This document shows positions 1,143-57,867 of a stretch of DNA of 64,000 nt, in pieces (within the stretch, counting starts at the first letter, position 1; each line of letters begins with the position of its first letter). The position numbers and the translations under genes are program-made. Origin of the DNA: an uncultured Gemmatimonadales bacterium (GTDB taxonomy: Bacteria; Gemmatimonadota; Gemmatimonadetes; Longimicrobiales; RSA9); contig CAVUKA010000004.1 of the NCBI GenBank assembly GCA_963741945.1, positions 32,001 to 96,000 of the forward strand. The letters run 5' to 3'. The notes below the pieces were generated by a model that ran no database searches, was not told where the DNA came from, and saw only the letters and a list, made by a program, of their open reading frames with translations.

Positions 1143-2579
1143 TCACGGCGCGGTCGTCACACACCCCGTCGCGTCGTATTCCGGGTTGTTCCGCTCCTGG
1201 TACGGCACCGGGAACGCCACGTCGTTGCCGATGGCGGCATTGAAGATGGTCGTCCCGATGGGGAACAGCTCGTTCTCGGTGAACATTCCCTGGTATGGCT
1301 GGATCGTGAGCAGGCGGCGCAGATCGCCCAACCGATGACCCGTCAGCCACAGCCAGAACGCACGCTCCTTGTACAGCAGGAGCACGCGGTCGTGCGCGTT
1401 GCCGGGATCCGTGAGCGCCGGCAGCCCCGCCCCCGACCGCAGCGTGTTCAGGATCTGCAGCCAGTTCCCGCTCGCACTGCTCCCCGCCGTGGCGCCCGCA
1501 TCCAGGTTCGCCTCGGCGATGATCAGCTGCGCTTCCGTGTACGTGGCCAGCGGCACGCCTGCGCCGCGGGACGGATACTTGAACTGGGCGTACTCCGGAA
1601 TCGCGGTCCCGCTGCCCACACCGGCGGAGTCCACCGGAACACGCGGATCGATGATGTTCGCCGGATCGGGCTGCGGGTTGTCCGCCGTGGGGGTTCCCAC
1701 TGCGCGGTTGAAGAAGCGGAGCCCGTTCACCCCATCTCCGCTGGCTGCGGATGAGCGCCGCTCGGAATTGATGTTGTACCAGATACCGTTGTTCTGGCTC
1801 GAGGAGTTCGGGCTGAACTCCACGTCATACGCGAAGTCCGCCGGGATCTGCTGAGCCAGTGACGCGGCGGCGGCCAGGTCGCCCTGGTCCTGCCGCACGC
1901 GCGCCAGGCCGAGCGTGGCGAGGTAGCCGAAGTCACTGGCGCCCGCCGCGTTCGCCATGTCGATGGCAGTCTGGAACCGCACGGCTGCCGTATCCAGCAT
2001 GGCGGCCTTGTCGATGGCCGGCTCGAACGTGATGCCCTGACCGAGCGGTGCATGGCTGAACGGCACGTTGCTGCACCAGTTCTCGGCGAAGAACACGAAC
2101 GTGTACCCCGAGTACGCCTTCATCTGCGCCCGGTATGGCGAGTTGGCGTTCTCGGCCGTCAGCAGCTCCTCCGCCTGGTCGGCCAGGTTCCTGGCCCGAT
2201 GCAAGCGGTAGTAGACGGTGTAGATGGAACCATTGGTGTCCTGCATGCTTCGACTGTCGATCTCCTTCATCGTGTCGAAGGTGCTGGCATACCACAGCTC
2301 GTCCGCCAGCAAACCGCCGATCCCCACTACGCCCGGCGTCTCGTTGTTCGCCGCCGGGCCCGCGATCGCCCGCGCGAACTCGAACAGCGCGCCGTTCTTC
2401 ACGGCCGGCGCGTTCGCCGTGTCCTCCACGGTAGGCAGCGTGATCAGATCTGGATCCTGCAGGTCGACCAGGTCGTTCGTGTTGCACCCGGCCAGTCCCA
2501 GGGTGGTGGCGAGCAGCGCAGCCCCGGCGAGCCGGATCCGGCTCCCGAGTCGCGTGCCGCCTGTAGTCGTCGTTCTCAT
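1143..2579 (-). CDS. RagB/SusD-family outer-membrane nutrient-binding lipoprotein
   Basis: Lipobox LAGC; SusD-like motifs EAQLIIAEA, ERAFWLWLTGHRLGDLRR and FPVPYQERNNP; directly downstream of susC. Confidence 0.9.
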   Translation of the reverse strand: MRTTTTGGTRLGSRIRLAGAALLATTLGLAGCNTNDLVDLQDPDLITLPTVEDTANAPAVKNGALFEFARAIAGPAANNETPGVVGIGGLLADELWYASTFDTMKEIDSRSMQDTNGSIYTVYYRLHRARNLADQAEELLTAENANSPYRAQMKAYSGYTFVFFAENWCSNVPFSHAPLGQGITFEPAIDKAAMLDTAAVRFQTAIDMANAAGASDFGYLATLGLARVRQDQGDLAAAASLAQQIPADFAYDVEFSPNSSSQNNGIWYNINSERRSSAASGDGVNGLRFFNRAVGTPTADNPQPDPANIIDPRVPVDSAGVGSGTAIPEYAQFKYPSRGAGVPLATYTEAQLIIAEANLDAGATAGSSASGNWLQILNTLRSGAGLPALTDPGNAHDRVLLLYKERAFWLWLTGHRLGDLRRLLTIQPYQGMFTENELFPIGTTIFNAAIGNDVAFPVPYQERNNPEYDATGCVTTAP

Positions 2580-2588
2580 CTATACCTC

Positions 2589-5564
2589 CTAGAAGTTCGC
2601 GTCGACGCGGAGCGTGAACACACGGTTCGGCGGCAGCGGCGAGATGTCGCGGGACGAGAAATTCGCCTGCCCGTAGCTGTTCACCTCGGGGTCGAGCCCG
2701 GGGTAGCTGGTCCACGTCGCCAGGTTCCGGCCGGCCAGGGTCAGCCGCAGATCGCTCGCCTTGAACGTCCGCGTCCAGCCGCTCGGCACCATGAACGTCA
2801 GCGACACCTCACGGAGCTTCACGAAGTCCGCATCCTCGATGTAGCCCGCCCACGTCCCGTATGCGGCGTAGCCAACCACCTTCGCCTGGTCCGCCAGCGA
2901 GCCCGTATAGGCCGCCTGGCAGTTCGCGTAGCTGCGGCACCGGACGTCTTCCGTCTGGTTGAAGAGCTTGTAGCCGCCCTTGTAGTCGAGCATCCCCGAG
3001 ACCCGGAACAGCTTCCAGAACGTCATGTCGGTGCTCAGCGACGCTTCGCGCGTCGGGAAGGAGCTGCCCAGATACACCGCGGTGTCTCCAACCACCATTT
3101 CGTCCGGGGCCAGGATCCCGTCCCCGTTCTCATCACTGTAGGACAGGATCGGGCGCTGCCAGTAGGAGCCCAGCGGGTATCCCTCCTGGTGCCGCTGGCG
3201 ACTGGCCGCGAACTCGATGGGCGGCAGCGGATTCCCCTCCGCGTCCGTACCCAGGTTCAGCAGCTGGTTCGACAGCCAGCTGGCCGTCGCGTTGAAGCCC
3301 CACATGAAGTTGTCCGTCCGCACCGCATCCCCGTTCAGCGTCAGCTCCAGCCCGGTGTTGCGCACGGAGCCGAGATTCTCCCACCGGCTCGTGCTGCCGC
3401 CGGGCGAGGGCGGAAGTGGGCGGTTCACCAGCGCGTCGGTCGACTTCTTGTAATACCAGTTGGCTTCCAGACCGAGGCGACCACCGAACCAGCCGCTCTC
3501 GAAGCCCAGCTCCCACTCCGACGTCCGCTCCGGCTTCAGGTCGGGGTTCCCGATCTCGTTGATCGTGATCCCGGGCACATCCGCCTGATTGAACGCCGTG
3601 ACCTGGGGCACGAAGGAGAGCAGCGCGTCCGTGGCGCCCGGGCGCAGGCCCGCCTGACCGTACGCCGCGCGCAGCCGCAGGTCGCTCAGCGCGTCGATCT
3701 GCGGGAAGAACTTCTCTTCGCTGACCACCCACGAGCCGCTGAAGGACGGGTACCAGATCCAGCCGATGTCGGTCCCGAACGCCGTGTTCTTGTCGCCGCG
3801 CAGTGCAGCGTTCAGGAACAGGCGGTCGCGCCACGCCAGCTGCTCCTGCGCATAGGCCGACAGCGTCGCATTGCGCAGGTTGCCTTCACCGGCCTCGAAG
3901 TCGCTCGTGGCGCCCGCCAGCGAGGTCTCCACACCCGGCGTCAGCCCCGCGCCGAAGGCGTACACGTCGTGCGAGTTCTCGCGGATGTACTGCGTCCCCG
4001 CCGTGGTGGTGGACATCAGGCTCGGCGTCAGGTTGTAGACCGCCGACCCGCTCAGGTTGGTGTTGATGTTGTAGATGGCCCAGGTGTCCGTCTGGATCCA
4101 GCCGTGCGAGTACACGCCGCCGTACACCTGATAGGCGCTGGTCCGCGGAATCCGGCCGCGGTCCTCGCGCGAGATCCGGTCCAGACCGGCCGACCCGTTG
4201 AAGCTCAGCCAGTTCAGGGGCGTCCAGTCGATGCTCGAGCTGCCGATGAACCGGCTCTGGTCCTGGTACGTCTTCCAGTCGTAGAAGAAGTCGATGGGAT
4301 ACAGGTACCCGCCCGTGCCCGGGCCGTAGAGCCCCAGTCCCGTGGCGCCGAACAGCGAGTTGTCGCTCAGCGGGAACTGCGCATTGTAGTCCACGTACCC
4401 TACCGACCCACGGATGCGGAAATCGTCGCCGACGTTCCCCGACAGGTTGGCCTGCAGGTTCCACTTGTGCATGTAGTTCTCGGAGTTGTACACGGACTCT
4501 TCTTTCGAGCGCTCGGCCGAAACGAAGAATGTCGTGTTCTCGGCACCACCCGAGATGCTGGCGCCGTAGACCTGCCGGCTGCCGCCGTCGAACACCGTCG
4601 TGGAGTCGTTCTCCAGCGGATTGAAGGTCTTGTACTCCACCACGCCCGTGCACAGCGGCTGCCCGCCCGCCGTGTACGTCACCTGGCTGAGGAGCGGGCA
4701 GAGGTCCCCGTTCGCGTCCAGACCGGCCACGTTCGTGGGGAACTTCGCACCCACGCGCAGCGCCGCCTGTTCGGTCCACACGTGCACCGACGGCGCTCCG
4801 GCACTTCCCTGCTTCGTCGTGACCTGGATCACGCCATTCGCCGCCGCCGTACCGTACAGGGCGGAGGCCGCCGGACCTTTCAGGATCTCGATGCTCTGGA
4901 TGTTGTTCGGGTTCAGGTCGTTCAGCGCCGACGGCGCCTGATCCAGGCCGCCGATCGGGTTCTCACTCGGGTTGTTGTCCACCCGCACGCCATCCACCAC
5001 GAGCAGCGGCGCATTGCTCAGCGACATGGAATTCGACCCCCGGATCCGGATGCGCGACCCCGAGCCCGTCACGCCGCTGCTCTGCAGCACCGTCGCCCCG
5101 GCCGTGCGGCCCTGGATCAGCTGGTCGAAGGACGTCACCGGTGCGAGATCCACCTTGCTGACGTCCACCACGCCCACCGAGCTGCCGATCTCCCGCAGCG
5201 TCTGCTTCCGCCCTGTCGCGGACACCACCACGGCGCCCAGCTCGATGGCCGACTGGCTCATCTGGAAATTCTGCGTCGTGGTACCACCGGCGGTCACCGT
5301 GACCGTCTGGGTCTGCGTGCTGTAGCCGATCAGCGTCGCCCGGATCTCCTGCTGCCCTGGCGGCACTTGCCGGATGATGTACTCACCATTCTGGTTGGCC
5401 AGCGCGCCCAGCGTCGTTCCCGCCACCGAGATCTGGGCCCCCGGCAATGGCGCGTTCGACGTCTGGTCCACGACGCGGCCCAAAATGGTTCCCGTCTGTG
5501 CCGCGATCGGCGATGCGCCGACCAGCGCCAGCAGGGCCATGACCGCCCACTTGTATCTGGACAT
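2589..5564 (-). CDS. SusC/RagA-family TonB-dependent outer-membrane transporter
   Basis: Signal peptide, carboxypeptidase-like N-domain, plug motif IEILKGPAASALYGTAAANGVIQVTTK, NPDLKPER, C-terminal Phe. ATG at 5564 follows a GAGGAG RBS. Confidence 0.93.
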   Translation of the reverse strand: MSRYKWAVMALLALVGASPIAAQTGTILGRVVDQTSNAPLPGAQISVAGTTLGALANQNGEYIIRQVPPGQQEIRATLIGYSTQTQTVTVTAGGTTTQNFQMSQSAIELGAVVVSATGRKQTLREIGSSVGVVDVSKVDLAPVTSFDQLIQGRTAGATVLQSSGVTGSGSRIRIRGSNSMSLSNAPLLVVDGVRVDNNPSENPIGGLDQAPSALNDLNPNNIQSIEILKGPAASALYGTAAANGVIQVTTKQGSAGAPSVHVWTEQAALRVGAKFPTNVAGLDANGDLCPLLSQVTYTAGGQPLCTGVVEYKTFNPLENDSTTVFDGGSRQVYGASISGGAENTTFFVSAERSKEESVYNSENYMHKWNLQANLSGNVGDDFRIRGSVGYVDYNAQFPLSDNSLFGATGLGLYGPGTGGYLYPIDFFYDWKTYQDQSRFIGSSSIDWTPLNWLSFNGSAGLDRISREDRGRIPRTSAYQVYGGVYSHGWIQTDTWAIYNINTNLSGSAVYNLTPSLMSTTTAGTQYIRENSHDVYAFGAGLTPGVETSLAGATSDFEAGEGNLRNATLSAYAQEQLAWRDRLFLNAALRGDKNTAFGTDIGWIWYPSFSGSWVVSEEKFFPQIDALSDLRLRAAYGQAGLRPGATDALLSFVPQVTAFNQADVPGITINEIGNPDLKPERTSEWELGFESGWFGGRLGLEANWYYKKSTDALVNRPLPPSPGGSTSRWENLGSVRNTGLELTLNGDAVRTDNFMWGFNATASWLSNQLLNLGTDAEGNPLPPIEFAASRQRHQEGYPLGSYWQRPILSYSDENGDGILAPDEMVVGDTAVYLGSSFPTREASLSTDMTFWKLFRVSGMLDYKGGYKLFNQTEDVRCRSYANCQAAYTGSLADQAKVVGYAAYGTWAGYIEDADFVKLREVSLTFMVPSGWTRTFKASDLRLTLAGRNLATWTSYPGLDPEVNSYGQANFSSRDISPLPPNRVFTLRVDANF

Positions 5565-6021
5565 GTTCACTCCTCGACCTCGTCTCCACTCTGGCCGGCC
5601 GCGCTCGTGCGACCGGCTGTCTTCGCCTTGTCCCCGGTCGGAACCGGGACTCGTTCGCTCCCTCGTTTCACCTCCCGCGCACAGGCGTACAACAGCATCG
5701 ACCCGCTCGGGTCTCTGCTCGTTCCCGCGATGGAATTGTCAGAGGGGGTAGTAGCGCTGGTTTGTCGGCGTGCCTCCTTTCTCGGGTACTCCCGTCTCGA
5801 CGTTGCCGATGGCACGGGCTCCCGCGCCCGCGCTTCATGAAGACATGGCTGCGTGGCAGTGGCTCGGAAGCCAGCGGCCACACGGTCGGCCGGTCGGATC
5901 TCGGGACTTCGGGTACTTCGGGCGGGCGTCATCGCCCCCGCTCACGCCGCGGCCTGGCCCCCCGCCTTCGGCCGGTCGGCCGGTCGTCACGGAGGTGAAC
6001 GGGTAATGGCTTCCCCGGCCA

Positions 6022-10758: not shown

Positions 10759-13140
10759 ATGAACGACACGACAATGGCGGAGCAGTCCTCCACCGCGGCG
10801 CTCCGTGACCACCTGGAGTACCGCCCCCCGTACCTGGGCGCGGCGCTCGCCGCGCTCGCGGTGTGGATCCTGTACGCGGTCACGCTGGCGCCCAGCACGG
10901 CGTTCTGGGACACCAGCGAGTACATCGCCACCGCCCACATCCTCGGCATCCCGCACCCGCCGGGGAACCCGACCTTCGTCGTGCTCGCCCGCGCCTGGGA
11001 GCTGCTGCTCGCGCCGTTCGGCCTGTCCGTGGCCGTCCGGATCAACCTGTTCAGCGCCACCATGGGCGCGCTGGCCCATGGGTGCTGGTTCCTCGTGGCG
11101 CACCGGATCGTGTCGTCGTTCACGCGCGATCGGAAGCTCCGCCTCCTCGGCGCCGCGCTGGCCGTCCTGGTCAGCGCCACCGCATTCACGGTATGGGCGC
11201 AGTCGAACGTGAACGAGAAGGTGTACACGGTCTCGCTCTTCACCATCGCGCTGCTGAGCTGGCTCGCGTTCCTGTGGCGCGACAACCTGGGGAAAGGCAA
11301 GGATGACAACCTCATCCTCCTCATGGTCTTCATCCTCGCCCTCTCGGTGGGGAACCACCTCATGGCCTTTCTCGCGGCCCCGGCCATCCTGGTCTTCATC
11401 CTGCTCGTCGAGCCCCGCACGCTCCTGAACTGGAAGCTGTACGCGTTCGGCGCCGCCGTGGCGATCCTCGGGCTCTCGATCCATCTGTTCCTGCCGATCC
11501 GCGCTTCGCTCCACCCGGTGATCAACGAGGCCGACCCGAGCACCTGGCACGCCCTCCTCGAGTCGCTCGCACGCAAGCAGTACGACAAGCCATCGGTGTT
11601 CACCAATCCCACCGACCTGGCCATGCCGCGCAGTGTGCCGCTGATCCTCGCGCAGATCGGCAACTACCTCCAGTACTTCGACTGGCAGTGGGCCCGGGGT
11701 CTCAACTTCGCCCAGTCGCTGTTCGGCGGCATCGGTCAGAATCCGCCGGGCGGCGCGCCGGTCCGGCCGCTCGTGACACTGCTCTTCGTGATGCTGGGCG
11801 TCTACGGCGCCTACGAGCACTTCGTGCGCGACCGGATCAGCTGGTGGTACATGGTGATCCTCTTCGCCACGGTCTCCATCGGCCTCGTCGGATACCTGAA
11901 CTTCAAGTACGGCTACACATTCCCGCAGCCGGGGCCGGGCTACAACATCGAGATGCACGAAGTCCGCGAGCGGGACTACTTCTTCATTGTCAGCTTCAGC
12001 GTCTGGGGACTGTGGGCGGGGCTCGGGATCTTCACGTTCTGGCGACGCCTGGCCGAAGTGCTCGGGGAGCGCGCGCGTTCCCTGGCCACCGCCACGCAAC
12101 GCGCCGCGGCCGCGTCGCCCGTGCTGGTGCTCGCCTTCCTCCCGCTGCTCCTCAACTGGAAGTACGCCGACCGCAGCAACCAGTACATGGCCCGCGACTG
12201 GGCCTACAACATGCTCATGAGCGTGGAGCCGTACGGCGTTCTCTTCACCAACGGCGACAACGACACGTTCCCGCTCTGGTACGTGCAGGAAGTGGAAGGG
12301 ATCCGGCGCGACGTGACCGTGATCGTCATGAGCTACCTGAACACGCCGTGGTACGCCAAGCAGGTGAAGGCCCTGACCGAGCCGTGCGCCGAAGGCGTGA
12401 ACCCGCTTGCGGATCCCACCCGGATCATCTGCCAGCGCCCCTTCCAGCCGGAGAAGGAAGCGGAAGTCTACGCGGCTCACGCCGGCTCGCCGCTGGACAG
12501 CGCCGGCGCGCCAGTGAAGGGGATGGCCCGCGCGGTGTGGACCCGCCCCGGGCGTTCGATCCTGTCCATGTCGAACGCGCGCATCGACTCGATCCCCGAT
12601 GTCTATGCGGCCAACCCGTACAACTTCCTGATCCAGGACCCGGTCCAGCTCAGGGCGGACAGCCTCCGCTTCACCATCCCCGGCAACCGCGTCCTCCTCC
12701 CGGCGGACGTGTTCATGCTGAACATCATTCAGAGCTCGCTCGGGGACCGGCCGATCTACTTCGCCACCACCACCCAGGCGTACGACCGGGTCGGGCTCAC
12801 GGGCCACCTTCTGCGTCAGGGGCTGGCCCTCAAGCTGTTCGACGGCGACCTGAAGGCCGACACCGCCGCGGGCATCTTCGCAATCCCTGCCAGCGCCCAG
12901 ATCCCGGGCAGCTTCGTAGACCTCCCGGCCACCGACACGCTCCTCTGGAACGTGTTCGTGCACCGCGGCGGCATCCCGGACAGGTGGGACTTCTGGCCCG
13001 AGCCGTCCACGAAGAACATCCCGTGGTATTACGTCTACGCCCACTACGCGGCCTACACCGCCCACGTGCAGCAGGGGGAGGAGGAGAAAGCGCAGCGGCA
13101 CTACGACCGGATGGAAGCGTGGACCAGACTGGCCCAGTAG
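10759..13140 (+). CDS. DUF2723 / TMEM260-like multi-TM glycosyltransferase (putative protein O-mannosyltransferase)
   Basis: WDTSEY...GIPHPPG, EKVY, EVRERDYFF and NGDNDTFPLWYVQEVEG motifs; about 11 TM segments then a soluble C-terminal domain. Start may be 10774. Confidence 0.85.
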   Translation: MNDTTMAEQSSTAALRDHLEYRPPYLGAALAALAVWILYAVTLAPSTAFWDTSEYIATAHILGIPHPPGNPTFVVLARAWELLLAPFGLSVAVRINLFSATMGALAHGCWFLVAHRIVSSFTRDRKLRLLGAALAVLVSATAFTVWAQSNVNEKVYTVSLFTIALLSWLAFLWRDNLGKGKDDNLILLMVFILALSVGNHLMAFLAAPAILVFILLVEPRTLLNWKLYAFGAAVAILGLSIHLFLPIRASLHPVINEADPSTWHALLESLARKQYDKPSVFTNPTDLAMPRSVPLILAQIGNYLQYFDWQWARGLNFAQSLFGGIGQNPPGGAPVRPLVTLLFVMLGVYGAYEHFVRDRISWWYMVILFATVSIGLVGYLNFKYGYTFPQPGPGYNIEMHEVRERDYFFIVSFSVWGLWAGLGIFTFWRRLAEVLGERARSLATATQRAAAASPVLVLAFLPLLLNWKYADRSNQYMARDWAYNMLMSVEPYGVLFTNGDNDTFPLWYVQEVEGIRRDVTVIVMSYLNTPWYAKQVKALTEPCAEGVNPLADPTRIICQRPFQPEKEAEVYAAHAGSPLDSAGAPVKGMARAVWTRPGRSILSMSNARIDSIPDVYAANPYNFLIQDPVQLRADSLRFTIPGNRVLLPADVFMLNIIQSSLGDRPIYFATTTQAYDRVGLTGHLLRQGLALKLFDGDLKADTAAGIFAIPASAQIPGSFVDLPATDTLLWNVFVHRGGIPDRWDFWPEPSTKNIPWYYVYAHYAAYTAHVQQGEEEKAQRHYDRMEAWTRLAQ

Positions 13141-19491: not shown

Positions 19492-19567
19492 CAGCCTTCT
19501 CGCGCCTCTCCGCTCATTGCGTGGGTGATCGACGAGTCCGTACCTTCCGCGGGTGGGAACACAAACG

Positions 19568-20674
19568 ATGGAAACCGGCTTCCTTCCACTCGCCGCACGG
19601 GTCTGGCGCCTGGCGGCCGTCCTGATGGTAATCGCTCTTTCCGGCTGCGACAACGTGGATTGGGGCGGCGCGGATGTGGCCATCGTGCCGCCACCGCCCA
19701 GGGTCGGGCCGGTCGAGACCCGGCTGGGCGAGGCGCAGCAGCTCCCCCGGGGCCCGCTCCTGTACTATGTGACCCGGGACAGCCTGCGGACCGTTGCTCG
19801 TCCCGTGGCCGAGATCCAGGACGGGGAGACTCGCCCGTTGAGCGCGGGCAGCGACAGCACGTATGGCGAGCGGTTCATCGCCGCCTTCCTGCGTGAGGGT
19901 GGAGAGCTCACCCTCTTCCACCGCGGCCGGCGCGCGGGTACGCTCGTCATCGATTCCGCCACCCTGGAACCCTCCGGCTGCGGGCTCACGCCCACCGGGA
20001 TCGGCCACGCAGAGCTCTCCGGCCGGGCCACCGACGCGCGCGAGTTCCTGGCCATGGCCAGGACCCAGGCCCCCCAGGGGCGCGTCCTCGCAGGGGACTC
20101 CCTGCGCGTGGAGCCGAGGATGCAGGTCGTGGGCAATATCCTGGCCGAGCGGATCCTGCGCGACCGCCAGGCCCAGCTGCCCAACTGGTCGCGCGCCCGA
20201 CGTCAGCTCTTCCCCTTCCCCGTCGAAGGGTCCCAGGACCTGGGCTTCACCGCCACGTTCCTCGTCGATGATGCCCTCGAAGTCGGCGACGACGACGAAG
20301 GGTACTCCCTTTTCGTCGTCTACACGCCCCAGGCCCAGAGCTACGACACCGCCTACGTCGACTACACGAGCTACACCGCCTCGGGCAAGGCCGCGCCCCG
20401 CGCCGTCGACTTCCTCGACTGGAACCGCGACGGCGGCCCGGAGATCCTGCTCGAGGTCTACGGCACCCGCAACAGCTGGTTCGCCGCCGTCGGCAAGACG
20501 GACGACGGCTGGCGGGAGATCATGAACGCGCGCTGCCCACCTTCCACCGCGCCCGCGCCCACCGGGACTGCCGCGCCGGCCGGGATGGATACTGCCGCCG
20601 GAGCCACCGCGGACACCGCGGCCGGGGCCGCCGTCGACACCGCCGCTGCGCCCGCCACCACCACCACGCCTTGA
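19568..20674 (+). CDS. Hypothetical lipoprotein with an Ala/Thr/Pro-rich tail
   Basis: Lipobox LSGC; FG-GAP/EF-like DWNRDGGPE; C-terminal DTAA repeats. Confidence 0.7.
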   Translation: METGFLPLAARVWRLAAVLMVIALSGCDNVDWGGADVAIVPPPPRVGPVETRLGEAQQLPRGPLLYYVTRDSLRTVARPVAEIQDGETRPLSAGSDSTYGERFIAAFLREGGELTLFHRGRRAGTLVIDSATLEPSGCGLTPTGIGHAELSGRATDAREFLAMARTQAPQGRVLAGDSLRVEPRMQVVGNILAERILRDRQAQLPNWSRARRQLFPFPVEGSQDLGFTATFLVDDALEVGDDDEGYSLFVVYTPQAQSYDTAYVDYTSYTASGKAAPRAVDFLDWNRDGGPEILLEVYGTRNSWFAAVGKTDDGWREIMNARCPPSTAPAPTGTAAPAGMDTAAGATADTAAGAAVDTAAAPATTTTP

Positions 20675-20717
20675 TGCGGGTCCCGGGGACCGGTACCTTT
20701 CCCTCCACATGACACGC

Positions 20718-20876
20718 ACGGGGTCACCCGGAAGCCGGTGAGAATCCGGCGCGGCCCCGCCACTGTAAGAGGTCCGGACAGGCGTCCGGATGGCCCGCTC
20801 ACGCGCCACTGGGGATCACCGAGGGTGAGCCCGGGAAGGCGAGCGACGCCGCCTCGAGCCAGGAGACCGATCCCGT
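20718..20876 (+). ncRNA. Cobalamin (B12) riboswitch
   Basis: GGAA-GCCGGTGAGAATCCGGC...GCCACTGT, GCCACTGGG...CCGGGAAGGC, B12 box GAGCCAGGAGACC. P1 is ACGGGGTC/GATCCCGT. Lies upstream of btu genes. Confidence 0.92.
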
Positions 20877-20968
20877 TCGTGCCCGAGCATACCCTTCGAG
20901 GGAGGGGTGCGGGCGCCAGCGATCGATCGTGATCCAGTGGCCCGCTCCCCCATGAGGGAGGCGGGCCT

Positions 20969-21931
20969 ATTTCGATACGTGAAGTCCCGGTCACCAGCGG
21001 CGCGCTGGTCGCCGCGCTCCTGGTGGCCCTTGCGGCCTGCGGCGGCGGCGATGCCGGCGAGGCCGGCCAAGCCGGCGGTGCTGCTGGCAATGCTCCTTCG
21101 CGCGTTCGCGTGACGGACCCGGCAGGTCGGGCCGTCACACTCGAAGCGCCCGCCCGCCGCGTGGTCTCCATGGTCCCTGCCATGACGGAGTGGCTGGTGG
21201 CGATGGGGGGAGCCGACCGGCTCGTCGCCCGTACCGACTTCGACACCGAGCCACAGCTCGACAGCCTCCCGTCCGTCGGCGGCGGCCTGGACCCGAGCGT
21301 GGAGTGGCTGGCCGCGCGCCACCCGGACCTGGTCATCGCATGGCCGGACGCGCCGAGCCGGTCCCTGGTCACGCGTCTCGAGAGCCTCGGCATCCCCGTC
21401 TACACGGCGCCGATCCAGACCATTGAGGAAGCGCTCGGGGCCGCTCGCGACCTCGGTCGACTCCTGGCGATGGACTCGGCCGCCGACGCTGTGGTGGCGC
21501 ATGTCGTGGCCGGGCTCGACTCCGTCCGCGCCGCCACGGCCCATGCGCCACGCCCGTCCACCCTTTTCGTCATCGGCCTCGACCCGCTCATGGCCGCCGG
21601 CCCCGGCACGTTCATCGACGAGCTGCTCGGGCAGGCCGGGGCTGCCAATGCCCTGGCCGGCGTGAACGCGCTCTGGCCCCAGCTGTCCCTCGAAGAGGTC
21701 GTCGCCCGGCGCCCGCAGGTCATCATCCTGGCGAGGGCGGGGGGCGCAGCCACCCCGGGCGAACCCCACGCCGTCGGGCTCCTCCGCGACCGCCCCGGGT
21801 GGGCCGACGTCCCGGCCGTGCGCGCCGGGCGCGTCTACGCCGTCGACCCGTACGTCGTCAATCGGCCGGGTCCGCACATGGCGGAGTCGGCAGCGCAGCT
21901 GGCGCGTCTCGTCCACGGAGGCGCGCTGTGA
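20969..21931 (+). CDS. btuF: Cobalamin ABC transporter substrate-binding lipoprotein (start uncertain; first canonical start 21023 truncates the signal peptide)
   Basis: RRVVSMVPAMTE, SVEWLAARHPDLVI, GPGTFIDELL, NRPGP; lipobox LAAC. Confidence 0.85.
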   Translation: MSIREVPVTSGALVAALLVALAACGGGDAGEAGQAGGAAGNAPSRVRVTDPAGRAVTLEAPARRVVSMVPAMTEWLVAMGGADRLVARTDFDTEPQLDSLPSVGGGLDPSVEWLAARHPDLVIAWPDAPSRSLVTRLESLGIPVYTAPIQTIEEALGAARDLGRLLAMDSAADAVVAHVVAGLDSVRAATAHAPRPSTLFVIGLDPLMAAGPGTFIDELLGQAGAANALAGVNALWPQLSLEEVVARRPQVIILARAGGAATPGEPHAVGLLRDRPGWADVPAVRAGRVYAVDPYVVNRPGPHMAESAAQLARLVHGGAL

Positions 21932-22923
21932 CGGCTCCATCGATCCCGGTCCGGCTCGCGATCCTGGCCGCGATGCTCCTGGCTGCGCTGCTCCTGGCCG
22001 TGGGGGTGGGTGCCGTTCCCGTGCCGCCCGCGGCCGTGGTCCGGGCCCTTGCCGGCACCGGCGACCCTACCATCCGCACCATCGTCGTGGAGCTCCGGCT
22101 TCCCCGCGCCGTTGCCGCCATCCTCATTGGCGGCGCGCTCGCCGTGTCCGGCGCGGTGTTCCAGGCGCTCCTCCGCAACCCGCTGGCCGAGCCGTACATC
22201 CTGGGCGTGTCGGGCGGGGCGGCCGTGGCCGCTGTGGCGGTCATCGGGTTTGCCGGGGCCACGGTCGCGGCGTGGCTCGTCCCGGCCGCCGCGTTCGCCG
22301 GCGGTGTCGGGGCGATCCTGCTGGTTTTCCGCATCGCCGCGTCGGTCGGACGTGCGCTGGACACGCGCGTGCTCCTGCTGGCGGGGGTGGTGGTGGGCGC
22401 CTTCTTCAACGCGGTCATCCTGCTGCTTCTCACGCTGGCCGATGTGGAGACGTTCCGCTCCGCGATCTTCTGGATGATGGGCAGCCTGGCATCGGCGACG
22501 TGGGGCACGGTCCTGGGCCTGACGGCGTTCACGCTTCCCGCCCTCGCCGTCCTCCTCGCCCTCGCCCGCGCGCTCAACCTCATGGCCGTGGGCGAGGAGA
22601 CCGCGCTCTATCTCGGCACCCGCGTCGAGCACGTCAAGCGCGCCGCCTACCTGGTCGCTTCCCTCCTCGTGGCCGCTGGCGTGGCGGCCGCAGGCGTGAT
22701 CGGGTTCGTGGGCCTCATCGTGCCCCACGCGCTCCGGCTCGTCTGGGGCGGCGACCACCGCTTCCTGCTCCCGGGCAGCGCTCTGGCCGGCGCCGCATTC
22801 CTCCTCCTCGCCGACACCGCCGCCCGGACCGTGGCGGCGCCCGTCGAGCTGCCGGTGGGCGTCGTCACGGCGCTGGTGGGTGTGCCGGTGTTCGTCGCCC
22901 TGCTCACGCGGCGGTCGGCGTGA
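21928..22923 (+). CDS. btuC: Cobalamin ABC transporter permease (FecCD family)
   Basis: LRLPR, FQALLRNPLAEPYILGVSGGA, IGFVGLIVPH, ELPVGVVTALVG; GTGA overlap with btuF. Confidence 0.9.
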   Translation: MTAPSIPVRLAILAAMLLAALLLAVGVGAVPVPPAAVVRALAGTGDPTIRTIVVELRLPRAVAAILIGGALAVSGAVFQALLRNPLAEPYILGVSGGAAVAAVAVIGFAGATVAAWLVPAAAFAGGVGAILLVFRIAASVGRALDTRVLLLAGVVVGAFFNAVILLLLTLADVETFRSAIFWMMGSLASATWGTVLGLTAFTLPALAVLLALARALNLMAVGEETALYLGTRVEHVKRAAYLVASLLVAAGVAAAGVIGFVGLIVPHALRLVWGGDHRFLLPGSALAGAAFLLLADTAARTVAAPVELPVGVVTALVGVPVFVALLTRRSA

Positions 22924-23723
22924 TCTATCGGGCCGCGGCGCTCGCCTACCGGTATCCCGGTGCCGCTCGCGATGCCCTGGCCGGGGTGGATCTCGAGGTG
23001 CCGCGGGGGGCGTTCTACGGCGTCATCGGCCCGAACGGCTGCGGCAAGACCACCCTGCTGCGGCTGCTCCTGGGCGCGCTCGCTCCGGACCGGGGCCAGG
23101 TTCGCTACGATGGGCGGCCTCTGGCGGAATGGTCGCGCCGCGAGCTGGCGCGACGGGTGGGCGTGGTGCCGCAGAGCGAGGAGCTGGTCTTCCCGCTCAC
23201 CGTCCGGGAGCTCGTGGCCATGGGCCGGTACCCGCACCTCGGCCCCTGGCGCACGGAAGGTGGAGCGGACAGGGCCGCCGTGGATCGTGCGCTCGACACG
23301 TGCGACATCACGGGGCTGGCCGCCCGTGCGGTGGGCACGCTGTCCGGGGGCGAGCGGCAGCGCGCCCGCGTCGCCAGGGCGCTGGCCCAGGAGCCGGAGG
23401 TGCTGGTGCTGGACGAGCCGACGGCATCACTCGATGTCAGCCACGAGATGGGGATCTTCGAGCTCGTTCGTCGCCTGGCGGACGACGGCGTGACCGTGCT
23501 CATGGTCACCCACAACCTGAACGTGGCCGCTCGCTTCGCCGACCGGCTGCTGCTCCTCGATCGCGGACGCGCGGCCGCGCGCGGCACCGCCGACGACGTT
23601 CTCCGCCCCGACATCCTCGAATCCGTCTACCACTGGCCGCTCGCCCTTTCCCATCACCCCGGACCCGGCCCCGACAGTGGCACCCCGCAGATCGTGCCCC
23701 TCAGACGCTCATGGACACCATGA
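22920..23723 (+). CDS. btuD: Cobalamin ABC transporter ATP-binding protein
   Basis: GPNGCGKTT, LSGGERQR, LDEPT; GTGA overlap with btuC. Confidence 0.9.
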   Translation: MIYRAAALAYRYPGAARDALAGVDLEVPRGAFYGVIGPNGCGKTTLLRLLLGALAPDRGQVRYDGRPLAEWSRRELARRVGVVPQSEELVFPLTVRELVAMGRYPHLGPWRTEGGADRAAVDRALDTCDITGLAARAVGTLSGGERQRARVARALAQEPEVLVLDEPTASLDVSHEMGIFELVRRLADDGVTVLMVTHNLNVAARFADRLLLLDRGRAAARGTADDVLRPDILESVYHWPLALSHHPGPGPDSGTPQIVPLRRSWTP

Positions 23724-25843
23724 TCCGCACCCCTCGCTCCCGCGCCTTCCTCCCCGCGAGCACCCGGCGCCCCATCCGGTGGCTGTCGCTGACCGCCGCC
23801 CTCGCGCTGGCACCCCTTTGCGGGCTCGCCGCACAGGACCTGGGCGACACCCTTCCCGACACCGTCCGGCTCTCCGACCTCGTGGTCACCGCCACGCGCG
23901 TCCCCCTCCCCAGGGAGGCGCTGCCCACGCCCGTCACCACCCTCTCGGGTGCCCGGCTGCGCGAGGCCGGCGTCCGGACCGTGGCGGACGCGCTCCGGGA
24001 GGTCACCAGCGCGGCGGTGGTGCGCGCCGGTGCGGCCGGCGCCCAGACATCGTTGTTCCTACGCGGTGGCGAGAGCGACTACGTGAAGATCCTCGTGGAT
24101 GGCGTCCCGGTGAACGATCCCGGCGGCGCGTTCGACCTCGCCGACCTCACCACCGAGCAGATCGAGCGGATCGAGGTGGTGCGTGGCCCGGTGAGCGTGC
24201 TGTACGGCAGCGACGCCATCAGCGGCGTCGTCCAGCTCTTCACCCGCCGTGGCCGCGGCGCACCCTCCGTCACCGCCAGGCTCTCCGGCGGCCTCGGCGG
24301 TCGCCCGGACCCGCCGACCACCGTGGCAGGCGACGATGGCGGCGACGGCACCGGGACCGGCGAAGCGGCATCGGCCGCCATCGACCCCGGCTTCGCCCGT
24401 GGTGGCGACACGTACGGCGACGCGGAGGCCGCCGCGTCGGTGGCCGGGTCCACGGGGGCGGTCTCCTACGCTTTCGGAGGCAGCCGCTCCTGGACCAATG
24501 GGCTCTACCGCATCAACAACGGTCGCGACCTCTCCACCGGGAGCGCACGCGTGGCCTGGACGGCGGCGCCCGGCACCGAGCTCGCCCTCACCGCCAGGCT
24601 GAGCGACAGCCGATCCGGCTTCCCCACCGACGGAACCGGCGCCGTCGTGGACCGCAACGCCCGCATCGATCGGACCCGGATCACCAGCGCCCTGGACGGC
24701 GGTTTCCGGCTGTCGCGCCGCATCGATGCCGCCGTCCGCATCGGCCTCGCCCACCGCCGCCGGCTCTCCCTCGACGATCGGGATGGCCCCGCCGACACGC
24801 TCGGTATCTTCGCGTCGGAGCTGCAATGGAACGTGGCGCGCCTGTCCGCGGACGCCCACCTGAATGCCCGGCTCCCCTGGGGCGTCCTCACCGCCGGCGC
24901 TTCGCTCGATGACGCCCGCGCCGACACCCGGTACACCTCGGACAGCGAGTGGGGCCCGGCCGCCGCCTCCGCCGACTACCACCGCACCAGCGCCGGCTAT
25001 TATGCCCAGGTCCTCGCCCAACCGGGCGACGCGGTCCATGTCACCGCGGGCGCCCGCCTCGACCGCAGCGCCACCTACGGCGACTTCCAGACGTATCGCC
25101 TCGGCGCCACCCTCCGCGTGGCACCCGGCTTCCGTTTCCGGGGTGCCGTCGGCCGCGGCTTCCGCGAGCCCGCGTTCGATGAGAGCTTCGGCAGCGGCTT
25201 CGGCGACCGCGGCAACCCCGACCTCGCACCCGAGCAGTCCCACAGCTGGGAAATGGGACTCGAGCACGACCTCGGCAGCACCGCCTGGATCGCCGCCACC
25301 TGGTTCCAGCAGCGCTTCGAAGACCTCATCCAGTTCACCTTCGCATCGCCCGAGCCCGACGCGCCAAGCTATTTCAACGTGGGCGCCGCCTCCGCGCGAG
25401 GCCTGGAGATCGAAGCTTCCGCCCGCTTCGGCCCCCTCGACCTCGCCGCCGGCTACACCCGCCTCTTCACCGAGGTCCTCGACCCCGGCCTCGCCTCCGA
25501 CGCAGCCTTCAGCGCTGGCCGCCGGCTGCTCCGCCGGCCCCGGCAGAGCGGGTCGCTCCACGGACGCCTCTCCGCCGCGGGCGGCGCGCTCCTGGCCACC
25601 ATCACCGCCGTGGGCACCCGCGAGGACCTCGACTTCGCCGCCGGCTACCCGGCCCCCCGCGTCTCCCTCCCCGCCTACGCCACCCTCCACCTCGCTCTCG
25701 AGCGGCGGCTCCCGCTGGCCGGCCCCGCCACCACCCTCGCCCTGGCCGTCGACAACGTCCTCGACACCACGTACGAGACCGTCCGCGGCTTTCCCGCGCC
25801 CGGACGCCTGGTCCGCCTCATCGTCGAGCTCCGCGCCCCCTAG
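23720..25843 (+). CDS. btuB: TonB-dependent cobalamin receptor
   Basis: Signal peptide, TonB box LVVTATR, IERIEVVRGPVSVLYGSDAISGVV, GNPDLAPE, GFPAPGR; sits in a riboswitch-led operon. Confidence 0.87.
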   Translation: MIRTPRSRAFLPASTRRPIRWLSLTAALALAPLCGLAAQDLGDTLPDTVRLSDLVVTATRVPLPREALPTPVTTLSGARLREAGVRTVADALREVTSAAVVRAGAAGAQTSLFLRGGESDYVKILVDGVPVNDPGGAFDLADLTTEQIERIEVVRGPVSVLYGSDAISGVVQLFTRRGRGAPSVTARLSGGLGGRPDPPTTVAGDDGGDGTGTGEAASAAIDPGFARGGDTYGDAEAAASVAGSTGAVSYAFGGSRSWTNGLYRINNGRDLSTGSARVAWTAAPGTELALTARLSDSRSGFPTDGTGAVVDRNARIDRTRITSALDGGFRLSRRIDAAVRIGLAHRRRLSLDDRDGPADTLGIFASELQWNVARLSADAHLNARLPWGVLTAGASLDDARADTRYTSDSEWGPAAASADYHRTSAGYYAQVLAQPGDAVHVTAGARLDRSATYGDFQTYRLGATLRVAPGFRFRGAVGRGFREPAFDESFGSGFGDRGNPDLAPEQSHSWEMGLEHDLGSTAWIAATWFQQRFEDLIQFTFASPEPDAPSYFNVGAASARGLEIEASARFGPLDLAAGYTRLFTEVLDPGLASDAAFSAGRRLLRRPRQSGSLHGRLSAAGGALLATITAVGTREDLDFAAGYPAPRVSLPAYATLHLALERRLPLAGPATTLALAVDNVLDTTYETVRGFPAPGRLVRLIVELRAP

Positions 25844-55330: not shown

Positions 55331-57727
55331 TCAGTCGGCGCTGGCCTCCACGGGCTCGCCCGGTCCCCCCTCGATATCCGGGTAGAGCGCCCGGTAGAGG
55401 GCCCGGTGGAGGAGCACGCGACGGATGTAGTCCCGCGTCTCGGAGTACGGGATCCGCTCGGAAAGGAGCTCCAGGTCGACGTGCTCGGGGAGCTTCTGCC
55501 ACGCCACTGCCCGGTTCGGCCCCGCGTTGTACGCCGAGAGGACGAGCGGGAGCTGACCGTTGAACCGCCCCATGAGCTCCTTCACGAACCGGACCCCGAG
55601 GTGAACGTTGACTTCCGGCTCCTTCAGGAGCGAGGTCTCGAAGTCTTTCAGCCCGGCGGCGCGGGCGAGCCCCCGCCCCGTCGACGGCATGATCTGCATC
55701 AGCCCGATGGCCCCCGCGCCGCTGGAGATCTCGGGGTTGAATGCAGATTCCTGCCGGATGAGGCCGGCTACCAGAGAGGGGTCCAGGTCCTGCTCTCGCG
55801 CTTCGGGGACCACGATGTTCCGGAACGGGAACGGGTAGACGATCCGGAGCAAGCGGGGGTTCCACTGCCCCTCACGCTGCCGGAGGTCCCAGCCCATGGC
55901 GATGCCCGTGAGGGTGTAGCCGCGGCGGTTCAGCGCTTCCGCCAGGGCGTACTCCCCCGAGATCTCGCCGGAGAAATGGCGCCTCAGCTGCGACACTTCG
56001 CGGACCAGATCATCACGCAGATCGAGCGCCGCAAGCAGGTCCACTCGCCGCAGCGCCAGCCGAACGAGGGAGTCGGCCCGCTCGCTCTGCGGCGGCTCTG
56101 GCGACATGGGGATCCCGAGCACACTCTCCCCGAGCAGCTCCGCGGCGCGCGCGCCGTAGAACGATAGCGGGTCCTGGCGACGCAGCGCTCGCAGCCGCTC
56201 CTCGGCCAGCGAGTCTCGTCCCAGCCTCTCGTACATCCGGGCCGCCCAGTACGTGGCCTGATCGGCCCGGCGGCCATTCGGGAACGAGCGGAGATAGTTC
56301 TCGAAGATGGTGGCCGCCTTGGCGTACGACCCGTCCATGATCTCCAGGTCGGCCAGCCGCATGCGGGCGAGCCCCGCCTCGTACAGATCCGGCGCCGCCG
56401 CGGCCGCTCGGCGGTAGTATTCCTTCGCCTCGTCCAGCTCGAGGGCATCGTGTTTCAGGTCGGCCAGCAGGAACAGCCCCCGGGCCGTCGCTTCCTGGTC
56501 CGGATAGCGCTCGGCCAGCCGGAGGAACGTCTTCTGCCCCGTCGTCGAGCGCCCCTGACGGTACTGCGCGCGCCCCGCCAGGTACAGCGCCTCGGCCGCC
56601 ACTGGCGCATTCTCGGCCGCCGTGCCGGCCAGCGCCAGCAGCAGCCGCTCCGCTTCCGGGTAGTGCCCACCATTGAACAGGGCACGTCCGAGCTGGAGTC
56701 GGACGCCCAGCCGGTCCGCGCCCGCACTTTCACCCGAGTCGAGGAAGTGGCCGAACGCTTCCGCCGCCCGCGACGCATTGCCGTGTCGCAGGTAGATCTC
56801 ACCGATCCGTCGCCACTCTCCGCTCGATGGATTCAGCCCGCTCAGCCCCCACGCCGCGTCCACGGCTCCCGTTGTGCCCGGCGCCCCCGCCATGGCATTG
56901 AGGAACGCTTCCCTGGCGCGGGCCGTGTCGCCCCCCTCCAGCCGCAGCTTGCCCAGCGCGGACCACGCTTCCGCTCGGTCCCCGCTCGCGTCCGCGGCCC
57001 TCGCCGCGTCCAGCGCCACCCTGCGCGCCAGCATGTTGTCGTCCGCACGGGTGGCCGCATCCAGCCGGATCCGCCAGCCCCGGTCCCGCGCCAGCCAGGA
57101 GGAGACGTCCCGAAGGCGATGCTCGACCTGCGCGGTGTCGCCCGCGCCCGCGGCCGCGCGCGCCGCGAAGAGGGATGCCCAGTCACCGAACCACGGGACG
57201 AGCGCCCGGGCACTGTCGAACGCGCTGAGCGCGGCGTCCGTTTCGCCCGCGCGCGTCAGCGCCAGCCCCCGACGGAGCTCCGCCACACCTGCCACGGAAT
57301 CTCCCGGCGCCACGCTCAGGTAGCGGGACAGCGCCTCGCCCGCGGCCGCGAAGCGACCCTCCCGCACGCGGGATCGGCCGAGCAGGCTCCAGCCGGCGCC
57401 GTTCTCCACCGTGTCCAGCCAGTCCCGCCCCTCCAGCAGCCGTGAGACCGACGCCCAGTCGCCCCAGCCAGCGCTGAGCCGTGAGGCGAACAGAATGGTC
57501 GTCGGCGCGGTGTCCGCCGCCGCCCGAAGGTGCTCCGCCAGCAGCCGGCTCGCCCGCCAGAAGCGCCCACGCTTCGCGGCCTCCCGGACGGGGCCCGGGA
57601 TCTCGGGCGCCGACGTATCCGCCACCGGGGTCCCCGGTGTCCGGGCATGGGCACCGCCGTGCGCCAGCCGCGAGGGGAGCGCGGCTGCAAGGACGAACAG
57701 GACGACCAGCGCGGGATTTCGGCTCAT
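55331..57727 (-). CDS. Soluble lytic murein transglycosylase with TPR-like repeats
   Basis: Signal peptide; TPR-like helices; IRQESAF, GAIGLMQIMP, AYNAG, ETRDY. Confidence 0.92.
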   Translation of the reverse strand: MSRNPALVVLFVLAAALPSRLAHGGAHARTPGTPVADTSAPEIPGPVREAAKRGRFWRASRLLAEHLRAAADTAPTTILFASRLSAGWGDWASVSRLLEGRDWLDTVENGAGWSLLGRSRVREGRFAAAGEALSRYLSVAPGDSVAGVAELRRGLALTRAGETDAALSAFDSARALVPWFGDWASLFAARAAAGAGDTAQVEHRLRDVSSWLARDRGWRIRLDAATRADDNMLARRVALDAARAADASGDRAEAWSALGKLRLEGGDTARAREAFLNAMAGAPGTTGAVDAAWGLSGLNPSSGEWRRIGEIYLRHGNASRAAEAFGHFLDSGESAGADRLGVRLQLGRALFNGGHYPEAERLLLALAGTAAENAPVAAEALYLAGRAQYRQGRSTTGQKTFLRLAERYPDQEATARGLFLLADLKHDALELDEAKEYYRRAAAAAPDLYEAGLARMRLADLEIMDGSYAKAATIFENYLRSFPNGRRADQATYWAARMYERLGRDSLAEERLRALRRQDPLSFYGARAAELLGESVLGIPMSPEPPQSERADSLVRLALRRVDLLAALDLRDDLVREVSQLRRHFSGEISGEYALAEALNRRGYTLTGIAMGWDLRQREGQWNPRLLRIVYPFPFRNIVVPEAREQDLDPSLVAGLIRQESAFNPEISSGAGAIGLMQIMPSTGRGLARAAGLKDFETSLLKEPEVNVHLGVRFVKELMGRFNGQLPLVLSAYNAGPNRAVAWQKLPEHVDLELLSERIPYSETRDYIRRVLLHRALYRALYPDIEGGPGEPVEASAD

Positions 57728-57740
57728 GTCTTCCAGGGAG

Positions 57741-57756
57741 TGCAACTGTCGGGCCC
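57741..57756 (-). promoter_or_regulatory. Putative sigma54 promoter of the SLT gene
   Basis: Minus strand GGGCCCGACAGTTGCA, GG-N10-GC, 14 nt before the ATG. Confidence 0.45.
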
Positions 57757-57867
57757 GGTAGCTCGTTGCGGCCGCGCCGCGACGGCGCCAGGCCACCCTC
57801 ATGGGAGGGTACACCGTTGCGCCGCGGAAGCGCCACCGCCCGGGGGCAGAGCAGCCGACGGGGGGGG

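Follow-up and report, generated by a model that had tools for sequence, protein, structure and literature searches.

What does a relative of the human protein O-mannosyltransferase TMEM260 do in an uncultured bacterium? The question is raised by a gene at 10759..13140 (+) in a 64,000-nucleotide stretch from a Gemmatimonadales bacterium (assembly GCA_963741945.1, contig CAVUKA010000004.1, positions 32,001 to 96,000; hereafter the window), whose 793-residue product carries the signature of the DUF2723, or TMEM260-like, membrane glycosyltransferases. Human TMEM260 is a proven protein O-mannosyltransferase (PMC10214176). A possible bacterial counterpart is the general O-glycosylation of Bacteroidota, described in Bacteroides fragilis, Tannerella forsythia, Porphyromonas gingivalis, Flavobacterium johnsoniae and Prevotella intermedia (PMC12871550, PMC10897501), where the sequon D-(S/T)-(A/I/L/V/M/T) has been established experimentally (PMC10897501, PMC12871550). 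According to a 2025 review, the transferase of that system is undiscovered, its core glycan starts mannose-rhamnose-glucuronic acid (Man-Rha-GlcA), and homologs of eukaryotic O-mannosylation should be sought (PMC12871550). Here we report that the same sequon is in excess in the exported proteins of this Gemmatimonadota genome, and we argue that sequon-directed O-glycosylation probably exists in the organism and that the GT117 gene is a plausible candidate for its transferase.

Identity of the GT117 gene product

A Pfam search places the product of this open reading frame in PF11028 (TMEM260-like) over residues 51-216, with an E-value of 1.7e-36 and 126.1 bits against a curated cut-off of 24.2 bits. 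Across the whole genome (4,088,639 bases in 8 contigs) it is the sole PF11028 match, at 131 bits, and a search of the 793-residue protein against NCBIfam returned no family. In a protein database, 6851 of 8000 scored candidates matched it at E <= 1e-5. Among the best 120 matches, the closest named sequences come from metagenome-assembled genomes (MAGs) of Longimicrobiales and other Gemmatimonadota, at 57-75% identity, in keeping with the sequence-only reading of this DNA, which had taken the organism for a probable member of that phylum. Names within the same 120 include 'glycosyltransferase family 117 protein' and 'protein O-mannosyl-transferase family', and all 120 carry PF11028 together with PF28495 (TMEM260_2) in the database's precomputed annotation.

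The conserved residues point in the same direction. A profile of 25 homologs of the protein (alignment A1) finds one solved structure, human TMEM260 (PDB 9rql, E 1.7e-18), matched over profile positions 35-344 and 398-526. The PF11028 core, taken from the Pfam envelope (residues 51-216; 10909..11406 (+)), starts at the first periplasmic loop motif, W50-D51-x-S53-E54-Y55, in which D51, S53, E54 and Y55 are invariant in 25/25 homologs. A second motif that is invariant in the 25-homolog alignment, T497-N-G-D500-N-D-T-F-P-L-W-Y508 (12247..12282 (+)), opens the putative periplasmic domain. In the profile alignment to 9rql, D51 corresponds to human D52, and N498-G499-D500, with D500 invariant in the 25 homologs, to human R439-G440-D441. 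D52 is required for the activity of the human enzyme (PMC10214176); a recent preprint has it align the donor and proposes D441, in the soluble Rossmann-like domain, as the catalytic base (10.64898/2026.03.17.711096). The PF11028 match, the profile match to 9rql and the retention of both catalytic aspartates bear out the earlier description of a TMEM260-type, multi-pass DUF2723 protein, and they indicate that the gene product is a GT-C glycosyltransferase of the inner membrane, belonging like human TMEM260 to CAZy family GT117.

An AlphaFold2 model of the protein (pLDDT 75, pTM 0.75) predicts a GT-C fold composed of a multi-pass membrane domain and a soluble domain. A Foldseek search with this model gave PglB (5ogl, E 1.7e-5) as the best match, followed by STT3, AglB, ArnT, ALG9/12 and Pmt4; TMEM260 entries were not in the list of matches from that fold library. 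By homology, the soluble domain would lie on the outer, periplasmic face of the membrane. Spanning approximately residues 480-793 (12196..13137 (+)), this putatively periplasmic domain has alpha/beta secondary structure in the model, yields no further Pfam match in the local library and contains five sequons. A conserved self-sequon on the enzyme was considered and rejected, since the six sequons of the protein are kept in 3, 1, 9, 3, 8 and 15 of 25 homologs, the last five values belonging to the C-terminal sites at residues 580, 610, 634, 701 and 726.

Sequon excess in exported proteins

The sequence-only reading had counted sequons by eye in proteins of the window and found exported proteins rich and cytoplasmic ones poor. 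We counted D-[ST]-[AILVMT] genome-wide and derived expected counts from the composition of each protein. Genes were called with our own dicodon gene caller, trained on long open reading frames with a high-GC codon-position pattern (3430 genes, 89% coding density), and export classes were assigned by our own rules for signal peptides, lipoboxes and hydrophobic segments. This procedure yielded 1709 cytoplasmic, 525 signal-peptide, 199 lipoprotein and 997 membrane-segment proteins (322 + 392 + 283); the last class was kept out of the comparison of exported with cytoplasmic proteins and scored separately.

The 724 exported proteins (signal peptide plus lipoprotein) contain 1293 sequons versus 858.2 expected, an observed/expected ratio (O/E) of 1.51 (bootstrap confidence interval (CI) 1.37-1.64) and a density of 4.62 per 1000 residues. 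In the 1709 cytoplasmic proteins, by comparison, 1159 sequons were observed versus 1286.3 expected, for an O/E of 0.90 (0.85-0.95) and 2.23 per 1000 residues. Lipoproteins alone (199) stand at 1.60 and signal-peptide proteins alone (525) at 1.47. Within-protein shuffles gave z = 14.3 for exported proteins (100 shuffles) and z = -3.9 for cytoplasmic proteins (60 shuffles), so that the contrast first noticed by eye holds across the genome with shuffled controls. Among membrane proteins, O/E was 1.01 with one segment, 1.32 with a signal peptide plus segments and 1.08 with several segments, and the Tat-like set stood at 1.46 (CI 0.76-2.12) versus 1.51 for Sec substrates, a value resting on only 20 proteins picked by regular expression, few of them convincing.

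Control motifs behaved differently from the sequon. Replacing Asp gave exported and cytoplasmic O/E values of 0.85 and 0.97 for E[ST][AILVMT] and of 0.89 and 0.84 for N[ST][AILVMT]. Rearranged motifs gave 1.03 and 1.09 (reversed), 1.09 and 0.94 (D[AILVMT][ST]) and 0.93 and 0.91 ([ST]D[AILVMT]), and changing the last position gave 0.71 and 0.62 for D[ST][KRHWY] and 0.67 and 0.77 for D[ST][SCGFNEQDP]. When all 20 residues were compared at position -1 before [ST][AILVMT], only Asp stood out, with a ratio of exported to cytoplasmic O/E of 1.67, the next being Trp at 1.33. At position +1 after D[ST], the corresponding ratios were 1.85 for Leu, 1.72 for Ala, 1.71 for Thr, 1.70 for Met, 1.63 for Val and 1.24 for Ile, and no more than 1.27 for any remaining residue. 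The excess is carried only by Asp at -1 and by Ala, Leu, Val, Thr and Met, and weakly Ile, at +1, which is the Bacteroidota sequon.

The signal is spread over the genome. All 11 of 11 chunks of 400 kb have an exported O/E within 1.31-2.38, and 376 of the 724 exported proteins exceed their own expectation, as do 575 of the 1709 cytoplasmic ones. By BLAST, the exported proteins form 532 families, of which the 467 singletons reach an O/E of 1.67; taking one random member per family gave 1.63 (range 1.56-1.68), and family resampling spanned 1.36-1.70. Paralogy does not explain the excess. Dropping the 10, 36 and 72 top-scoring proteins lowered the exported O/E to 1.39, 1.23 and 1.07, but removing proteins by the excess itself is circular, and we therefore rely on the family-level resampling.

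The placement of the sites also has some structure. Within mature exported chains the first tenth contains the most sequons (178 versus 81 in the last tenth), and the flanks upstream of the sites are rich in Pro and Ala, a pattern anticipated for flexible linkers near the N-terminus. Against the genome-wide trend, a family of 12 exported paralogs encoded outside the window is strongly depleted in the sequon (8 versus 31.8 expected, O/E 0.25), which might mean that glycosylation is avoided in that fold.

Distribution of the family and of the motif

Within the phylum, 150 of 151 genomes and 82/82 genera carry PF11028, often in 2-4 copies. Two of the genomes counted (G053 and G093) are flagged unpublished; both match, and the figure without them is 148/149. 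The single genome lacking the family, G116, is assembled in 280 contigs and 97% complete. Because only 1 of the 151 is without PF11028, the phylum offers no negative group for an internal co-occurrence comparison. Copies are sometimes adjacent on one contig (G017:C148, G014:C15 and G008:C171), and paralogs within the phylum may have split functions; the genome studied here has one copy.

Elsewhere the family is distributed unevenly. It was found in 201/201 Bacteroidota, 2/81 Pseudomonadota and, with weaker scores, 16/61 Myxococcota, and in a single one of 14 control genomes, Bacteroides thetaiotaomicron. All six named genomes of the Fibrobacterota-Chlorobiota-Bacteroidota (FCB) group were positive (Flagellimonas, Saccharicrinis, a Chitinophagia MAG, Roseithermus, Sphingobacterium and a Calditrichaceae MAG), and none of nine named genomes outside it was (Methylobacterium, Archangium, Streptomyces, an Acidobacteriaceae MAG, Paraburkholderia, a 'Deltaproteobacteria' MAG, Lentisphaera, Deinococcus and a Solirubrobacteraceae MAG). 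PF11028 is near-universal in Gemmatimonadota and Bacteroidota.

Named genomes were found via a universal 16S rRNA word, and 200-400 kb of each was run through the same pipeline. Four genomes with no PF11028 gave exported O/E values of 0.74 (Methylobacterium), 0.91 (Streptomyces), 1.00 (Archangium) and 1.21 (Acidobacteriaceae MAG), or 0.95 when pooled (0.81-1.09), and three of the four have 68-73% G+C. Within the phylum, eight genomes pooled to 1.57 (1.32-1.90); of these, G132 gave 1.91, G057 gave 1.19 and the six from other classes gave 1.50 together. In the eight, Asp is again the top residue at -1, and the +1 values are 1.95 for Leu, 1.72 for Ile, 1.53 for Val, 1.48 for Thr and 1.36 for Ala. 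Overall, the sequon footprint is real, specific to compartment and residue, common to the phylum, and a match to a motif that experiments have established in a related phylum.

Proposed function and alternative explanations

We propose that the transmembrane part of the GT117 protein would bind a polyprenyl-phosphate-linked sugar, most likely undecaprenyl-phosphate-mannose, and that its periplasmic domain would grip newly exported proteins by a segment that is still unfolded. The sugar would pass to Ser or Thr of D-(S/T)-(A/I/L/V/M/T) sequons, with D500 acting as the base and D51 positioning the donor. Such a transfer would initiate a general O-glycosylation of the kind known by experiment only in Bacteroidota, with its mannose-first glycan. 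The statistical footprint makes it probable that sequon-directed O-glycosylation exists in this organism. Given such a system, we put the GT117 gene at slightly better than an even chance of being its transferase, an assignment that is plausible but circumstantial; it draws on the universality of the family in both phyla and its rarity elsewhere, on homology to TMEM260 with both aspartates kept, and on a Bacteroidota glycan that begins with mannose and has no assigned transferase. Taken together, the two propositions fall somewhat short of an even chance.

Several observations weigh against this proposal. The case for a glycan modification is statistical throughout, and it uses gene calls and export classes from simple heuristics of our own rather than established predictors. 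Class errors are visible (SSB called exported, a DUF4382 lipoprotein called cytoplasmic, a doubtful signal peptide on BtuF); such errors should dilute the contrast between exported and cytoplasmic proteins, not create it. In 779 membrane proteins oriented by Lys/Arg bias, a crude predictor, outside loops stood at 1.30 and inside loops at 1.11, a weak difference, though in the predicted direction. Between orthologs, 12 of 55 sequons were retained and 5 of 28 reversed motifs, with no clear difference in a set of only 28 exported reciprocal-best pairs. As for the enzyme, Pfam finds no lipid-sugar synthase, flippase or other glycosyltransferase beside the GT117 gene among the window proteins, and no TPR family in the GT117 protein at E <= 0.01, whereas human TMEM260 holds its acceptor via TPR repeats; in some related atlas clusters, only 16-47% of members carry TPR_14. 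Other candidate enzymes are encoded elsewhere in the genome, namely one Wzy_C protein (446 aa, contig C5) and three PMT_2 GT-C proteins over the cut-off along with two weak ones; STT3 had no match over the cut-off in the genome.

The comparison with other PF11028-bearing phyla also counts against the proposal. Exported O/E was 1.29 in Flagellimonas (400 kb), 1.08 in Roseithermus (400 kb) and 0.58 in Saccharicrinis (200 kb), or 1.09 for the three Bacteroidota samples pooled (0.92-1.27), and 0.75 in a Myxococcota genome that has the family (G475), where only 16 exported proteins were sampled. In the Saccharicrinis MAG (G152, C1:2000001-2200000), 29 exported sequons were observed versus 49.9 expected in proteins whose signal peptides look genuine; two SusC-size proteins there (968 and 1012 aa) contain no sequon. 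Outside Gemmatimonadota, the presence of PF11028 did not predict sequon enrichment. The co-occurrence of DUF2723 with enrichment that the sequence-only reading had put forward as a check thus holds for one half, in that the four family-lacking genomes are flat, and fails for the other, in that two of three Bacteroidota samples and the Myxococcota sample are flat or depleted. Since these Bacteroidota positive controls are unconvincing, the excess clearly marks Gemmatimonadota but is an undependable sign where the system is known.

With these points in view, the sequons could be glycosylated by another enzyme, either an en-bloc O-oligosaccharyltransferase of the PglL/Wzy_C type or a PMT_2 GT-C protein, and GT117 could then serve a narrow set of proteins, as TMEM260 does with IPT domains, or a non-protein acceptor in the envelope. 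The Wzy_C and PMT_2 genes of this genome, the GT117 gene's want of glycosylation neighbours and the PF11028-positive genomes without enrichment all fit such a division of labor, as do the protein specificity and long sequon of human TMEM260 (preprint 10.64898/2026.03.17.711096) and the published Bacteroidota model, which is en-bloc transfer of a lipid-assembled core glycan (PMC12871550). Phyletic distribution argues the other way. Wzy_C had no match in 12 of 101 genomes of the same Bacteroidota sample, yet 9 of the 14 control genomes, E. coli among them, do have one; it is therefore not universal among bacteria known for the system, nor restricted to them. The B. thetaiotaomicron control has no PMT_2 match. 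PF11028 alone among four families tested is universal in both phyla and rare elsewhere, and we regard transfer by another enzyme as unlikely. Less likely still is that the tripeptide excess is unrelated to glycosylation and expresses a structural or compositional habit of the lineage, for example at turn-to-strand junctions, with GT117 employed in an unrelated envelope job. A sugar on the sequons is not among our observations, the Pro/Ala-rich flanks and the concentration of sites near the mature N-terminus could reflect linker composition, and neither the ortholog pairs nor the homologs of the GT117 enzyme show clear conservation of sequons. Moreover, Bacteroidota glycosylate the motif yet show little or no excess in three samples, so that excess and glycosylation are not tightly coupled. 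A mere habit of composition, however, fits poorly with an excess that is confined to exported proteins, does not extend to reversed or permuted motifs or to those with Glu or Asn at -1, and matches residue by residue a motif defined experimentally in another phylum. Nor is there an excess in the four family-lacking genomes, including the three with high G+C, and a published survey finds it mainly in Bacteroidota and Fibrobacterota, of the same superphylum (PMC12871550).

Genomic neighborhood and candidate substrates

Annotation of the 41 window proteins with Pfam gives the GT117 gene a hydantoinase, a small beta-barrel outer membrane protein, an EamA transporter and SbcCD as neighbours. Two window proteins with eight sequons each are candidate substrates. 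One is a lipoprotein (19553..20674 (+)), identified by its lipobox and belonging to no Pfam family, with its eight sites in ~340 mature residues, which would make it a convenient test substrate; the other is a lytic transglycosylase with TPR and SLT domains (55331..57796 (-)). The by-eye counts of the sequence-only reading were reproduced for both, as well as for the C-terminal domain of the DUF2723 protein (5), PolA (3 in 917 aa), MaeB (2), SbcC (1) and PckA (1); the DUF4382 protein has two. Pfam likewise agrees with the names it had given from the letters alone: SusD, TonB receptors, Peripla_BP_2, DUF4382, SLT, PolA, malic enzyme, SbcC and PEPCK.

Two other loci in the window encode further sequon-bearing proteins. 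At 21110..25843 (+) lie genes for a BtuF-like protein (3 sequons), a FecCD permease, an ABC ATPase and a BtuB-like TonB receptor (4 sequons), and a cobalamin riboswitch (RF00174, 66 bits, E 4e-14) at 20704-20889 (+) stands just upstream of this cluster. At 1143..5570 (-), a SusD-like lipoprotein (4 sequons) is paired with a CarboxypepD_reg/TonB-dependent receptor (2 sequons). Such SusC/SusD-type pairs are a hallmark of Bacteroidota, and the pair is a second trait common to Gemmatimonadota and Bacteroidota.

Implications

Sequon-directed O-glycosylation has been described as unique to Bacteroidota, with a transferase missing since the discovery of the system (PMC12871550). Citing a survey of all genera, the same review describes enrichment as 'mainly in Bacteroidota' and 'not in all species', with Fibrobacterota as a further case; in the library searched we found no literature on a sequon footprint or O-glycosylation in Gemmatimonadota, although a figure of that survey may already show the phylum (PMC12871550). 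We likewise found no literature proposing GT117/DUF2723 as the Bacteroidota transferase. A literature search on DUF2723 returned the TMEM260 paper only, and none of the papers listed for TMEM260 from 2024 on concerns bacteria; on bacteria, the available text of the TMEM260 paper refers only to 'distant homologs in bacteria' (PMC10214176). A second phylum with the same motif footprint and a universal GT117 gene narrows the list of candidates by comparative genomics and supplies further organisms for testing the enzyme. If the proposal is true, a family known only from a human congenital-disease gene would gain a function in bacteria, and glycosylation sites would become predictable across a large and mostly uncultured phylum of soils and sediments.

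Comparison with known systems

The PglL/PilO-type enzymes (Wzy_C) of Neisseria and Burkholderia resemble the proposed one in acting in the periplasm and using a lipid-linked donor for general O-glycosylation of many exported proteins, but they belong to an unrelated fold family, follow no strict sequon (PMC12871550), and Wzy_C is widespread in bacteria without this motif signature. The GT39 enzymes, yeast PMT and actinobacterial Pmt, are GT-C proteins that transfer mannose from polyprenyl-phosphate-mannose to Ser/Thr during membrane crossing; they form a different family without significant sequence similarity (PMC10214176) and without a defined sequon, and the Streptomyces sample shows no motif excess (O/E 0.91).

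Human TMEM260 (PDB 9rql, 9rqm and 9rqn) shares with the GT117 protein its Pfam family, the GT-C fold, both catalytic aspartates and a layout in which ~11 membrane helices precede a soluble domain on the non-cytoplasmic side. It reads its sequon on an extended peptide, with the residue after the modified Thr in a hydrophobic pocket (preprint 10.64898/2026.03.17.711096), and the bacterial protein is proposed here to act similarly on Ser/Thr in extended peptides, where a sequon marks the site and a hydrophobic residue follows it. IPT domains are the specific targets of the human enzyme, which recognizes a ~20-residue sequon via TPR repeats and uses dolichyl-phosphate-mannose; the GT117 protein, in contrast, has no detected TPR domain and would have to work with a donor of the undecaprenyl type and a sequon of three residues.

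The closest parallel is the Bacteroidota system itself. An LFG-like outer-glycan locus, with a flippase and glycosyltransferases, is not conserved even across that phylum (PMC12871550). The two cases differ in that they belong to different phyla, with glycoproteins known in Bacteroidota and sequence alone here, in the weaker motif excess of the three Bacteroidota samples (pooled 1.09) than of this genome (1.51; relatives 1.57), and in the length of the GT117 proteins, ~880-1300 aa in Bacteroidota versus 793 aa here. Alignments to the Bacteroidota proteins cover residues 28-240 (30-31% identity), 309-540 (36-43%) and, in one case, 396-693 (30%). This organism, which we take to belong to the same FCB superphylum as Bacteroidota, shares with them the identical three-residue motif, here as a statistical excess confined to proteins outside the cytoplasm, and a GT117 gene, which is present in 201/201 Bacteroidota and in this genome. 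We tentatively suggest, as a possibility somewhat less probable than its converse, that throughout the FCB group GT117 proteins are the protein O-glycosyltransferases that read the sequon. The D-S/T-hydrophobic system would then predate the split between Bacteroidota and Gemmatimonadota, with stronger selection on the sequon in Gemmatimonadota, and would share with animal TMEM260 O-mannosylation both its ancestry and a hydrophobic pocket for the residue after the modified Ser/Thr.

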